The position numbers and the translations under genes are program-made. A DNA stretch of 64,000 nt, taken from the NCBI GenBank assembly GCA_964016885.1, contig OZ024746.1, positions 93,620,001-93,684,000 of the forward strand, written 5' to 3'. This stretch comes from Eledone cirrhosa. Lineage: Eukaryota. The notes beneath the pieces were generated by a model. It did not search any database. It saw only the letters and a list, made by a program, of their open reading frames with translations, and was not told the origin of the DNA. Positions 1-64,000 of the stretch are shown here, in pieces (positions within the stretch are counted from its first letter, which is position 1; each line of letters begins with the position of its first letter).

Positions 1-445
1 GTGTTAGAAGTGGTGGTGGTGGTGGAGCGGATGATAGTGATAGTGGTGAGGGAGGATGGTAATGGTGATGATGGTAGTATTGATGGTGACAGAGAAAGAA
101 AGCGATAAGGAGATAAAGAGAGAGAGGGTGCTATAGATTGTTCTGCCGTTCAATGCTATCTCTCTACACCATTGCAATATAATACACTCATATCAGCTAC
201 TTTCTCACGCTCCCTAAGACCACCTCGATGGATTCTTATCTATCCTTGTATTTCACCTGGCTGCACTTGTTGATGTTGTTGTTGTTGTTGTTGACGTTTC
301 CACTTGGCAGCAATACTACTACTACTACTACTACTACTACTACTACTACTACTACTACTACTACTACTGTTGCTGCTGCTGCTGCTGCTGCTGCTGCTGC
401 TGCTGCTGATACTGATGCTGATACTGATGCTGATACTAGTAACGC

Positions 446-492
446 ATTCCTGATGATTTCTCCCGAATGAAACAGTTCTAGTCCTGTAGAAG
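446..492 (+). ncRNA. Type-I hammerhead ribozyme (minimal, PLE-type) in a ~130-bp PLE 3' terminus (440-568)
   Basis: ttc-CTGATGA-tttctcccgaat-GAAA-cag(ttctagtc)ctg-TA-gaa: intact core, 3-bp stems I and III. Same family at 39966-40008 (-), 14595-14706 and 28410-28450. Confidence 0.7.
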
Positions 493-653
493 CCATTTCT
501 ATATTAAATATTTATACTCTGCTACCTTACTTATTGTAGTTAACCCCGATTGAACCTGGGATAAACATATATATATAATCTCTCTCTCTCTCTCTCTCTC
601 TCTATATATATATATATATATATATATATATATATATATATATATATATATAT

Positions 654-872
654 GTGTAGAAGTTATATTTAATTTGTTGGGATGCAACAAGTAAATATTT
701 TTATAACTGATATAAAGCACTCAACAAATTATTGGAGTAAAACTACAATATATTAACAAATGGAAACTATATTTATAAAACCATATTTATTTTATTATAC
801 ATTTGGTGTCCTTGAAATATATATAATGAAATAAATATGGTTTTATAAATATAGTTTCCATTTGTTAATATA
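654..872. mobile_element. Fold-back PLE terminus (same family as 36005-36430) in (TA)n
   Basis: Inverted arms ~750-800/820-872 meet at ttggtgtcctt-GAAA-tatata-TA-atgaaata (3' half of a hammerhead). gcactcaa motif at 717-724. Confidence 0.7.
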
Positions 873-1050
873 TTGTATATATATATATATATATATATAT
901 ATATATATATATATATATATATATATATATATATATACAAGAAGGTAGTACAGCATAATCGAGGCTCTGGTTGCGGGCAAGCTAACGAATGAAATACACA
1001 CATATATATATATATATATATATATATATATATATATATATATATATATA

Positions 1051-1261
1051 AAGTAATAATAATAAATTTGAAGACTAAAATCCAAAGAGGGCTCGATAAG
1101 GATAAATATATATCAAATATATAAGAACCGTAGAGCAAATATTTATTAAAATAACAGATTAAAGTTTAAGCAAAGAATCGCTGCTTTCACCCTTAACGGG
1201 ATCTTTCAGAAGGGTGAAAGCAGCGATTCTTTACTTAAACTTTAATCTGTTATTTTAATAT
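1051..1261. mobile_element. Fold-back PLE-like terminus with degenerate hammerhead; second copy at 40241-40308
   Basis: Inverted arms 1144-1194/1210-1260. The minus strand reads CTGAAAGA-tcccgttaagggt-GAAA. TA flanks. Confidence 0.55.
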
Positions 1262-59941: not shown

Positions 59942-60385
59942 CCAGTATTCTTTCTTGCCCTCTTTAGTCTGATGTGCAGCAAAGCCTGGGCTGGTAGCTG
60001 ATTGCACCAGATTGCCACTGGCGAAAGTGTTGCAACATGTAGCATCCCAGATGGATGACCTATCACTGCAGAACGGGAAGAATGTCATGTTATCTGGCCT
60101 TGAGCTGGGACAGGAAGCCTGCAGCATCCAGGCCATGCTTTATGATCTCATTAAGAGCAGTATGGCATAGGACACAGCCAACACTATGATGCCATAACAG
60201 TGGGAGGTGGCCAAAATAATCCACAGTGGATCTGCAGTGGCATTTGTGAGGCTCACAGATCTGGAGACCGAGCCTCAAGGAAACACCAATGCAACACAAA
60301 TAGTTGCTATCCAGCTGAGTATGAATCAAGAGTGATGGTATTGAGTTAAGCCAGGCACCTCTGCAGAGTTTGGGCTGGAGTGGGG
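59942..60385 (-). mobile_element. CRE-clade retrotransposon fragment (zinc finger + REL endonuclease)
   Basis: GAWLNSIP...GVSLRLGLQICEPHKCHCRSTVDYFGH...HTALNEIIK...RPDNMTFFPF...IWDATCCNTFA. Confidence 0.8.
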
Positions 60386-60583
60386 AAGCCAATATTAGTA
60401 ATATTGATATTAGTAATAGATATTGCTTTATCACATGCAGATGGGAAGACAGGTCTTCTACAGTACTGTATGAAAAGAGGAGGGGGAGAAGTGTTGCATA
60501 CTAGAGACCAATATATACATATATATATATATATATTTATAAAATATTCAGACAGTCTCAGACGCGAGCCTGCATATTAAATC

Positions 60584-60671
60584 ATATCTGAGAAGCTTCC
60601 GATTCCAGAGTCAGGTTCGATCATTAATAGATCATTCCTCGAGCTGATCGACAGTGAAACATATGTAATAT
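60584..60671 (+). ncRNA. Hammerhead with long stem II (core mutated) in PLE-like terminus 60540-60805
   Basis: atat-CTGAGAA-[61-nt imperfect hairpin]-GAAA-catatg-TA-atat, with ttgagtgc downstream at 60755. Confidence 0.6.
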
Positions 60672-61202
60672 ATAATTAAATATGTATATGATGCAACACT
60701 GATTCTTTGTTCCCTTATATATTAATACTATTGATACTCTGCTCCCCAACAACATTGAGTGCTCACCTGGCATACCACCTATGGACGCAATTAACTTTCA
60801 CCTTTAAACACACATATATACATATATATATATATGTGTGTGTGTGTGTGTGAGTGTAAGGTGGTGGTGCTGGCACCATGAAAAGATGGTCATGCTCCCA
60901 GTATGTACTGTCAAGTGGTTGGCATTAGGAAAAGCATCCAGCTTTAGAAAAGTTGCTGAATATGGAACATATGAGCAAGACATGGTCATTTGACTGATCT
61001 AGTCAGAGAACCTGACAGCTCATCCTACACATGCAAGTATGGAGTGTAATCATTAAATGGTGATAATGATTATATATATATATATATGATTCCACTTCTT
61101 CACAGAAATAACAACACTACCAGCAGCTGGACATATCGATGGATTGACGAAGTAAAACACACTTCAACAACATGTCTACCTGTCTTTTCCACACCAATTC
61201 GG

Positions 61203-61257
61203 ACTGCCTGAAGAGGTGACAGCCAATGATGGCTGTCACCGAAATATATATAGCAGT
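61203..61257 (+). ncRNA. Type-I hammerhead ribozyme (best-formed copy) in PLE-like terminus 61088-61316
   Basis: actgc-CTGAAGA-ggtgacagcca(atga)tggctgtcacc-GAAA-tatata-TA-gcagt. Perfect stems I (5 bp) and II (11 bp). Confidence 0.9.
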
Positions 61258-64000
61258 ATATCTATAATTTATAATAAACAAAGCCAAATTTTACATATTT
61301 GACTTAATTATTTTATATATATATATATATATATATATATTTATATATATCTAAATCCAAAATTACGATAAAATGAATTAAATGAATTTAATCTAAATCG
61401 AAATCATGGGTGTCATGTCATAATGCATGCGCCATATATCCTGGGAATTTAAGCTCAAAGATAAATCTGAGCATATTATAATAACTAGAGGTTAATCAAC
61501 CTCTAGTTATTATATATTTATATATATATATTTATATATATATATATATATATATATGTATATATATATAAATATATATTTATATATATATTTATATATA
61601 TTTATATATATATATTTATATATATATATATTTATATATATATATATATATTTATATATATTGCATTGTAACATAAATTCCCGGTGATTTGTGAAAACAA
61701 ACAAATTATAACAACGGCGGGACTTTATGTTACAACCCAATATAACAATATATATATATATATATATATATATATATATATATATATATATATATATATA
61801 TATATGTCACAGGTGTGTGATGAAAGAACTTGATAGACTATATGTATATATTTATACCTATACTTTTAACCGTTGGTCAATCAATGATAAATATTGATTG
61901 CCAGCTAAATTAACTATAGTGATATAAAATTATAAAATATACAAAAGCAAAAACCAATCCAAACCAAACAGTGAGTGTGTTTTATTATTATTTCTGCAAT
62001 ATTATAACAATATGACCCTCCCCAAATATAACAATATATATATATATATACACACACACACACACACACACACACACACACACATACATATATATATATA
62101 TGGAGGCACATGGCTTAGTGGTTAGAGCATTGGCCTTGCAATCGAAAGGTTGTGAGTTCAATTCTCAGACCGAGTGATGTGTTGTTTCTTTGAGCAAGAC
62201 ACTTTATTTCACATTGCTCCAGTTTACTCAGCTGTAGAAATGAGATGATAGGACTGGGGTCCATATCATTCCACTGCAAAGTGGTCGTGTAGGTGCCACG
62301 GCAAAAAAGCACCCAGCACTCACTGTAAATGAGGTTAGTGTTAGGAAGGGCATCCAGCTGTAGAAATCAAGCCAGCATCAGTTCCCGTCCCACCCTTGCA
62401 AGCAGGGAAAAAGCGGACGTAAAATGAAATGATGATGATGATGATATATATATATATATATATATATATATATATATGTATATGGAGGCACATGGCTTAG
62501 TGGTTAGAGCATTGGCCTTGCAATCGAAAGGTTGTGAGTTCAATTGTCAGACCGGGTGATGTGTTGATTCCTTGAGCAAGACACTTTATTTCACATTGCT
62601 CCAGTTCACTCAGCTGTAGAAATGAGATGATAGGGACTGGAGGTCCCTATCATGCCACTGCAAAGTGGTCGTGTGGGAGCCACGGCAAAAAAGCACCCAG
62701 CTTTTTGTAAAGTGGACGTATAGGCGCCATGGGAAAAAAGCACCCACCACTCTCTGTAAATGAGGTTGATGTTAGGAAGGGCATCCAGCTGTAGAAATCA
62801 ATCCAGAATCAGTTCCATCACCATCCGGCTCTGGTCATATCTGTCTGTATGCCTGGCTGTCTGCATTACGACATTCTGACGAACATTGATGACGTATATA
62901 TGCATATATACAAACACACACACACCGACCACAACTAAATATGGAATGATACGCGATGGGGCCCCTCCTCCCCCAGCCCCGGTGATCAGAATAGAGAAGG
63001 CGTTTCCCCCGGAGGACAGCAAGGGAGACGCGCTGGAAAAGCCACTCCAACTCGCGGGGGCTCACACCTGCAGCTGGCCAGCTCAGCGCCTATGGTGATG
63101 AGTAGGGAGGTAGCCCTAGGGCCAAGGACACCAAAGGTCTCCACTGCCAGGATACAAAACATTTAACTTTTTCTGGAACCGTTCCTTCAGCAATTGTTGA
63201 TTCATCTACCAACTTTTCTAATGAAGCGAAAACAAAGGCTCAAGTATGTTGCTTTAATAACTTGAACACCCAACGATCACAAAGATTTAAACTGCGACAA
63301 TAGGGTGATTGTTTGATCATTGCCACTCTTCTCCTCTGGTAAAAAATCTTTTGTGGATTTAGCAGTTTGATGTGTGTATCATAAACTCATAAGAATGACA
63401 GCAAAATAATTATGCATAGGCCTGTGACAAAATACAGCATTGATACAGAATATCACATGTGTACAACAAGTTCAAATTCCAACTAATATTAATTACATTT
63501 ACTGCTATATATGGCACACAGCCTACTATTGTACACCAAGTATATATATATATATATATATATATATATATATATATATATATATATACACATATACATA
63601 CACACACACATATATACATATGCATACACACAAACATACATATCATTTTACAGACCAACTCTGTACTTAATACATATAAAATTCCGGTGGCCAGGTGTTA
63701 CATAAACATACCTATTGATATTTCAGTGGATGTAGAAAGGAGTCCCCACTCCTCTCCTCTTCCTTCCAGTAGTTTTACCTGTACTGTCATAAATGGATGT
63801 CTCTATTTTCACAGTTTGCTGCTGTTTTTCAGCACAGAAAATTTTGAGCAAGAATACTTTTCAGGAATATCGAAACAGGAAAGATTTGATGTATTCCTCA
63901 CCACCATTACCACTACCACTACCACCACCACTACCACCACCACCACCACCACTACCACCACCACCACCACCACTACCACCACTACCACCAACACCGCCAA

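Follow-up and report, generated by a model that had tools for sequence, protein, structure and literature searches.

What are the short islands of unique sequence that separate the (TA)n tracts of a 64,000-nucleotide (nt) stretch of the Eledone cirrhosa genome (assembly GCA_964016885.1, contig OZ024746.1, positions 93,620,001 to 93,684,000; the window below), and do the hammerhead ribozyme motifs in many of them mark a separate class of small elements? An earlier interpretation of this DNA from its letters alone (the sequence-only reading) had proposed a hidden community of at least eight hammerhead-bearing mini-retroelement families there. We conclude, with a probability of roughly 0.88, that the islands are mostly the 3' ends (pseudo-long terminal repeats, pLTRs) of Hydra- and Neptune-type Penelope-like elements (PLEs) lying in (TA)n, often as two opposed arms; that the RNA of tandem parents is the predicted substrate of their motifs, which would likely cut as dimers; and that lone stubs are likely inert. 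Hammerhead-bearing PLE ends in TA are a known kind of sequence, and the less known part is a hairpin in their tails together with a bias in where the two arms join. The window is microsatellite-rich, and the genome searched comprised 3.0 Gb in 1,796 contigs.

The hammerhead-like motifs in the window are real and lie far above chance. The type I core sought, CUGANGA / GAAA / UH with three helices, is present in the window motifs except the copies at 22742, 39966 and 60584. With thresholds chosen after the window had been inspected, a strict type I descriptor gave five matches (13044+, 35846+, 36245+, 36102- and 61208+), compared with means of 0 to 0.07 in dinucleotide shuffles (30 global and 30 local), and a relaxed one gave seven, compared with 0.075 in 40 local shuffles; the latter adds 22150- and 21220+, of which 21220+ is doubtful and resembles a chance match. 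Mapping reference copies back onto the window yielded 35 rows, of which six reference artefacts (four family C rows and two cross-matches between families Neptune and L) were removed, leaving about 29 islands of 15 families. The proposed density of about one per 3 kb is borne out for islands (approximately 1 per 2.2 kb) and fails for intact ribozymes, of which the descriptor finds about 1 per 9 kb. Twenty-three of the 29 islands adjoin (TA)n, versus 15% of random intervals. A comparison sample of twenty 10-kb pieces from contigs C1-C6 held five descriptor matches (shuffles 0.2) and 16 islands of the window families; the window is 4-6 times richer than this 200-kb sample, the island ratio being inflated by our having defined the families in the window. 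No Rfam hammerhead match was present among 150 of the 191 matches listed for the window, nor in two small further regions. Folding of ten motifs gave a single one, 61203, that in the hammerhead shape clearly exceeds its shuffles in stability (z -5.3); the helix II domains of families D, G and J, at 60-105 nt, are well beyond those of the usual minimal motif (window 22018-22160 and 60584-60672; locus L121).

Eight of the eleven examples that the sequence-only reading had listed are complete, variant or marginal motifs. Those at 13039, 35838, 36046 (-), 36237 and 61203 are complete, as is 22019, on the minus strand with its core at 22150 and a 104-nt helix II domain; 12763 is a complete variant with a U3:A8 core and only 2 contiguous pairs in helix I, and 446 is marginal, with 3 contiguous pairs there. 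The other three fall short: 60584 has a core mismatch of C3 with A8 (another copy carries G8), 22742 was broken by a short deletion that took helix III and the cut site (other copies are intact), and 39966 ends 1 nt before the cut site. The sites at 36046, 36237 and 805 belong to one family, and 446 and 39966 to another. The four reported 3' halves (805, 2575, 34105 and 40168) do exist, with complete motifs of their families elsewhere. The window also contains a near full-length PLE and three further hammerhead families absent from that list. The differing stems, which had been taken as covariation, belong to unalignable families and are not covariation in the strict sense.

Do these motifs stand alone, or do they end longer elements? 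The earlier proposal, PLE 3' termini or non-autonomous derivatives, agrees with our search for ORF (open reading frame) extensions by tblastn with natural Hydra and Neptune frames, which ties nine of the 15 families to a PLE frame with reverse transcriptase (RT) and GIY-YIG endonuclease, seven of Hydra type (I, H, B, C, F, M and F2) and two of Neptune type (Neptune and L); one more family is of retrozyme type. Full-length parents were found, some with open frames and in tandem. Family I, from which most of the 3' halves derive, ends a tandem element of 3,543 bp whose open frames measure 784-795 amino acids (aa; loci L118-L120). Its frame is a single ORF of RT and C-terminal GIY-YIG, the endonuclease aligning to the Neptune one with an E value of 2e-6; the translation shows, in accord with the definition of Hydra in PMC8557442, a CxCX5C linker and no CCHH, DKT for DKG, an N-terminal RWR (one residue off RWK), and CNLC and CKH close to the conserved E and N. 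The unit exceeds the size given for Hydra elements, generally under 3 kb, in a wording that does not bar membership, and the complete family I hammerhead has a paired U3:A8 core. A Hydra-like endonuclease also lies upstream in the sense direction in 14/30 loci of family H, chosen by its longer 5' part, in 14/30 of family B, in 11/30 of family C, in both of two extended loci of family M and in one locus of family F2; for family F it was found in 0/30 loci within 1.5 kb and, at about 1.6 kb, in 2/8 hand-picked extended loci. Family H has a TA/TG tract inside its 3' untranslated region (UTR) and for that reason seemed to lack an ORF until the search was extended to its longer 5' part; its locus L004 extends upstream. 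In families B, C and H the loci of a family share 0.6-1.5 kb, which speaks against the ORFs being independent neighbours. Exact genome-wide matches number 2,151 for family I, 739 for H, 1,472 for B, 8,379 for F, 760 for C, 909 for A and 9,245 for E, with 0 for each family in the reversed-pattern control. Pfam gave only weak RVT_1 matches on window fragments, and a profile built from Neptune matched the Hydra frames weakly. The core of family M is CAGAAGA (U4A) in all full copies seen (e.g. 40246-40307 (-), L182 and L343) of this family, which has an ORF-bearing parent, and many of its copies start exactly at the core. Because nine families trace to PLE ORFs, we regard the islands as mainly 5'-truncated, often mirror-image PLE ends; as a name, mini-retroelement families is mostly wrong for these stubs of 2.5-4 kb elements, while the tandem unit of family E fits the retrozyme type.

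The near full-length PLE is of Neptune type and occupies 8452..11880 (-), with RT, a CX4CX2C linker and GIY-YIG. Its frames, 11880-10381 and 10432-9236 (-), are frameshifted, with an additional break in the endonuclease end. Each of its two pLTRs carries a degenerate hammerhead: the 3' pLTR one with a core at 8731-8725 and a 2-bp helix I, and the other, with its core at 12176, in the inverted pLTR arm of the insertion at 11858..12425 (+). The family is young: of 34,910 first-look candidates genome-wide, the 104 scored are 97-100% identical, with open frames of up to 1217 aa. Family L, not in the earlier list, ends a second Neptune family, 67% identical (14226..14531 (-), hammerhead core at 14474). 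Assignment to Neptune follows from translations showing a C-terminal GIY-YIG with CCHH and a CX2-5CxxC linker, with the cysteines conserved in a 31-sequence alignment. A homolog search with the Neptune frame returned 80 relatives, mostly unnamed and without clade names, and a search of sequencing runs with a Neptune stretch listed no RNA run as containing it. Upstream of the RT this frame has a long Asn-rich insert (11360-11800 (-)), also present in an intact 1217-aa copy (L122). A further Neptune-like pLTR end, related to 8486-8558 and with no visible hammerhead core, lies at 61806-62037. In both Neptune families a small hairpin, TTTCR...YGATT, was seen by eye after the short end (8452-8486 and 14226-14275).

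How did the stubs come to be short and so often two-armed? PLE insertions are described as 5'-truncated and are often found with an inverted arm and a tail on one side, while (TA)n is the preferred target of Hydra and Neptune elements (PMC8557442); the traits of endonuclease-bearing (EN+) PLEs, namely pLTRs in tandem or inverted, a one-sided tail and (TA)n targets, are all found here. Copies show two fixed 3' ends, one short and one long, each running into TA; in family I these lie at +17 (37/101 occurrences) and +97 (38/101). In the window stub of this family at 2433..2628, whose arms are joined inside helix II (tail hairpin 2507-2484 (-)), the long arm ends at about +100 and the short arm at about +20 from the cut site. 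In 1.17 Mb not selected for family I, mostly flanks of other PLE stubs, there are 86 occurrences of the family I 3' core, of which only 3 have the 5' core, and 48 of the 86 (each inverted pair being counted twice) are in inverted pairs with cores 14-54 nt apart, joined within the helix II region. Nearly all family I 5' ends fall within helix II of the ribozyme, and the 5' ends of families I, F and M are ragged. An apparent pile-up of family A 5' ends at +10 was traced to a faulty reference and discarded.

This geometry suggests a course of events. Published work ascribes a preference for (TA)n to the GIY-YIG endonuclease and its cysteine linker, and describes heavy 5' truncation of the copies. 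Reverse transcription on the RNA would then be primed from both sides of the DNA break, the enzyme would stall at the ribozyme helices, and the self-complementary stems would supply the microhomology that joins the two arms, producing 3' halves and palindromes. Two-sided priming, stalling and joining at the stems would therefore explain the 3' halves without a separate element class. An RCUC...GAGY hairpin in the tail would anchor the RT and set the priming site.

In that hairpin RCUC pairs with GAGY beneath two additional bases; it begins 6-10 nt beyond the short end and is found in all 11 testable families. Tailed copies carry it in 34/39 cases for family I, 7/10 for B, 10/16 for C, 12/18 for F, 8/11 for F2, 16/23 for H (minimal form), 18/28 for A, 4/7 for D, 5/7 for M and 1/2 for J, and in the one copy of G, at 19 nt from a guessed end; no copy of family K passed the filter of this genome-copy test. 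Shuffles give the hairpin in 0 to 1.5%, a rate that is no independent test because the pattern was defined on these sequences; copies within a family are likewise not independent of one another. The Hydra-type hairpin was found in 0/17 Neptune copies, 0/7 of family L and 0/29 of family E. Its closing pair is A-U in most families and G-C in B, M and the second hairpin of family I, which lies 6 nt past the long end; family I alone had tandem copies in which this could be tested, and second-hairpin matches for C, F2, H, A and M were loose, lay in neighbouring DNA and were rejected. In the window, 19 of the 21 tailed arms examined carry the hairpin, including that of family K, and both family A copies are without it. 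By eye, the G-C form also lies downstream of the hammerhead in the Hydra consensus that immediately precedes Hydra-1_Obim in the supplement of PMC8557442, a coral element by file order. In the literature searched, with small coverage of subscription papers, we found no description of this hairpin, and neither 'hairpin' nor 'stem-loop' occurs in the main text of PMC8557442 as available. We tentatively propose, at slightly less than even odds, that Hydra-clade PLEs share a cis-acting RNA hairpin, an RCUC helix under a 2-nt bulge, that fixes the RT start 6-10 nt upstream, once per side of the break, while the ribozyme helices set where the cDNAs stop and join. If true, the sister group of telomerase RT would possess a template-positioning signal conserved between this genome and a coral element, and the sequence of the hairpin could serve to recognise non-autonomous families driven by Hydra elements, such as A.

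Families A, D, G, J and K, for which no ORF link was found, all carry the Hydra-type tail hairpin. Family A has 2,397 first-look candidates; its 5' boundary recurs at about 330 nt before the core, and a tandem junction was sought for it and not found. A Hydra frame beside a family A copy in L272 was rejected as a parent, since it belongs to other families. Family A may nevertheless have a PLE parent, because the ORF of family H, too, came to light only through its longer 5' part. At 25-80 nt before the hammerhead, the upstream part of family A (L270:1250-1500) contains words resembling CCAAT and TATA, possibly an internal promoter.

Family E, that of 22742, is of the non-LTR retrozyme type with a minimal hammerhead, of which the window copy is broken. 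Its unit of about 430 nt (36% GC) forms head-to-tail arrays with one type I hammerhead per unit and no ORF over 69 codons. In 25 insertions with 26 arms, 23 arms stop at either of two sites separated by about 56 nt, and 18 are longer than one unit, with scattered 5' starts. It was likely copied in trans by a PLE from circular or multimeric RNA. A TTTCR...YGATT-like hairpin follows the long end of family E loosely, past unit position 276 (by eye), a resemblance to the Neptune hairpin that could point to Neptune as carrier of this retrozyme.

Might the islands be explained otherwise? Chance matches in AT-rich, microsatellite-rich DNA could account for the relaxed match 21220, and loose matches do arise when helix I is cut to two pairs; as an explanation of the whole, chance is vanishingly improbable, and for the named families it is refuted by the shuffle controls, the hundreds to thousands of exact copies and the ORF links. 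A more substantial alternative is that most islands are mini-elements in their own right, non-autonomous and either SINE-like or retrozymes, which have promoters of their own and amplify as short units by means of PLE enzymes. This does hold for family E, with its tandem 430-nt unit, and is plausible for family A, with its recurrent 5' boundary, its CCAAT- and TATA-like words and no sense PLE frame joined in 30 + 30 loci; copies of H often begin at one point near a CATATG palindrome, and stubs far outnumber full copies. Against it, nine families run on into PLE ORFs, H lost its ORF-less appearance once the longer 5' part was searched (and A may be alike), and I, F and M have ragged 5' ends, so that as an account of most islands we judge it rather improbable. 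It is also conceivable that the motifs in most families no longer cut and persist either for an RNA structure at which RT pauses or binds or as mere passengers, as the weak monomer folding, the 2-bp helix I of Neptune and the U4A core of family M would allow. Naiads thrive without hammerheads (PMC8557442), 8/9 Xenopus retrozyme dimers were uncleaved in vitro (doi:10.64898/2026.07.22.740005), and 5' ends do not pile up at the cut site in I, F and M. Yet 15 families that cannot be aligned have all retained the catalytic core, B and I have swapped C3:G8 for U3:A8 as a pair, and helix III is palindromic as expected for dimers (PMC4209133), and we think general loss of cutting unlikely. We are similarly doubtful that the palindromic stubs arose by fold-back of a single cDNA instead of two-sided priming, with the tail hairpin a by-product or packaging signal. 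A cDNA could indeed fold back at the junctions, which lie in self-complementary helices, and PMC8557442 explains the tail on one side by an intermediate that the endonuclease resolves; but the end of the second arm is at a constant internal position that runs into TA, and family I has a second hairpin 6 nt past its long end too.

The interpretation of the islands as PLE ends with cutting-competent parents must itself be set against several observations that weigh on the other side. Eight of the ten folded motifs have z values of -1.4 to +0.3 relative to shuffles, and the 22742 motif folds into a different hairpin. The young, very abundant Neptune family has a mere 2-bp helix I, and its motif may be incapable of cutting because helix I is so short. 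In families I, F and M the 5' ends are not concentrated at the cut site. The ORF links of F, F2 and M depend on one or two loci each, and B, C, F, F2, H and M were placed in the Hydra clade by tblastn matches to a single Hydra frame (29-53% identity) and not by a tree. A Pfam scan of two full-length frames (family I and Neptune) gave no match. Family A lacks a joined PLE ORF in 60 loci (30 + 30), and D, G, J and K lack a link in the DNA retrieved for other families, no genome-wide search having been made for them. Finally, two-sided priming, stalling, arm joining and a priming site set by the hairpin are readings of insertion geometry.

The islands themselves are distributed as follows. Besides 2433..2628, family I has mirror-image stubs at 15139..15345 and 28503..28729, a stub at 8180..8307 (+), two nested two-armed pieces at 34949..35369, stubs at 47281..47609 and a diverged relative at 40484..40600 (+). 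Family F left a mirror-image stub with 3' halves only at 655..864 (tail hairpin 738-719 (-)) and a two-armed insertion at 36003..36433 with two complete hammerheads, cores 36102 minus and 36245 plus (tail hairpin 36349-36368); the F2 two-armed stub at 35752..35990 has a complete hammerhead at 35838-35907 (+) and a tail hairpin at 35950-35974. Family M, U4A-cored in its full copies, is represented by a mirror-image stub missed by the earlier list (1053..1265, tail hairpin 1136-1091 (-)) and by a stub starting at the hammerhead core (40246..40307 (-)). The two-armed stub of family B spans 12475..12810 (hammerhead 12770-12805 (+) with a U3:A8 core, tail hairpin 12630-12559 (-)); between its arms, 12678-12760 holds about 70 nt copied from the neighbouring Neptune junction (11848-11905 and its pLTR), which suggests local templated repair during insertion. 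Family C forms a mirror-image stub at 12910..13111 (complete hammerhead 13039-13078 (+), tail hairpin 12969-12950 (-)), and the family H end at 61084..61313 (+) contains the best-folding motif, a complete hammerhead at 61203-61257. Family A contributes an end at 447..566 (+), with its core at 450 and predicted cut after 488, a 3' fragment at 14594..14699 (-) and the fragment 39967..40007 (-) that stops 1 nt before the cut site. An end of family D lies at 21821..22181 (-), where the hammerhead (22160-22018) has a 10-bp helix I and the 104-nt helix II domain (tail hairpin 21950-21870), and a 3' fragment at 35440..35747 (-); the family G end with a long helix II and the C3/A8 mismatch lies at 60574..60800 (+; tail hairpin 60736-60760); and families J (33837..34183, 3' halves only) and K (40021..40234, a 3' half, tail hairpin 40106-40083 (-)) form mirror-image stubs. 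Family E is present as a fragment without a hammerhead core (2059..2338) and as about 1.4 units of ORF-less tandem repeat (22550..23074 (-), core at 22787), from which helix III and the cut site are lost.

Other repeats share the window. Two decayed non-LTR element fragments in opposite orientation, with RVT_1 and zf-RVT matches, lie at 23256-25126 and 29893-31108. A very abundant SINE-like dispersed repeat of about 190 nt occurs at 1902-2062 and at some 20 further sites (13968, 21297, 22353, 27007, 45785, 50432, 54211 and others), and a second dispersed repeat at 25190-25490, 29173, 52828 and 55400. A short frame at 52253-52699 (-) with a weak HTH_32 match is likely a Tc1/mariner remnant, and 58053-58124 (+) matches tRNA in Rfam at 42.7 bits, above the gathering score, and may be a SINE head. 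Minisatellite arrays at 3528-5808, 15836-17601, 27632-28022, 42246-43695, 43934-44635 and 57561-58028 have periods of 45, 14, 17, 49, 57 and 16, respectively; the 57-bp unit includes CTGATGA without forming a hammerhead.

Taken together, we see ordinary PLE biology in a genome unusually rich in PLEs, with thousands of ribozyme-bearing stubs, unflagged by Rfam, that reflect TA-targeted retrotransposition. The value lies in mechanism, that is, in PLE priming, inverted arms and one-sided tails, and priming is directly testable in vitro here because young parents survive intact, independent families are numerous and the conserved hairpin keeps a fixed distance from the priming site. The words hidden and unusual were overstatements, since many hammerhead families per genome and the (TA)n preference of Hydra-1_Obim are already published: Acropora has over 6000 hammerhead motifs in 16 families (PMC7229834), the giant squid annotation lists 235 hammerheads (PMC6962438), Hydra-1_Obim of octopus prefers (TA)n (PMC8557442), and 31 recently active PLE families are annotated in Octopus vulgaris, with hammerheads going unmentioned (PMC13282606).

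How do these elements compare with known ones? The motifs resemble known minimal hammerheads in type I topology, a small palindromic helix III, an unpaired base at the start of helix II and the presence of many families per genome, and a 2-bp helix I variant is known from Drosophila virilis; they differ in that some helix II domains reach 50-105 nt, and their cleavage is predicted from sequence. The pLTR hammerheads described previously have a tiny palindromic helix III and work poorly, probably as dimers (PMC4209133; PMC6765202). Family E is like metazoan non-LTR retrozymes, which have been argued to be PLE derivatives (doi:10.64898/2026.07.22.740005), in its ORF-less tandem unit, GC content below 45%, range from monomers to multimers and coexistence with PLEs (PMC7229834; doi:10.64898/2026.07.22.740005); it differs in its minimal hammerhead, 4-nt palindromic helix III and two fixed 3' ends running into TA, and is known here from DNA. 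The Neptune element shares with the Neptune clade, as PMC8557442 describes it, the CX2-5CxxC linker, a GIY-YIG with two cysteines inside the motif, TA flanks and an inverted pLTR, and departs from it in the Asn-rich insert upstream of the RT, the 2-bp helix I and the lack of a Hydra-type tail hairpin. Finally, the Hydra-type families agree with the Hydra clade of the same source in RT followed by GIY-YIG, DKT, CxCX5C and no CCHH (these motifs as read in the family I frame), a 3'-end hammerhead, (TA)n insertion, an inverted 5'-truncated arm and a one-sided tail, and by eye the family I frame resembles the printed Hydra-1_Obim protein of Octopus bimaculoides. They differ from the clade as described there in their number, at least seven Hydra-type families with hundreds to thousands of copies each, in tails of 65-160 nt compared with 30-40, in long 3' UTRs (0.3-1.6 kb) and in the U3:A8, U4A and long-helix-II variants of their hammerheads.

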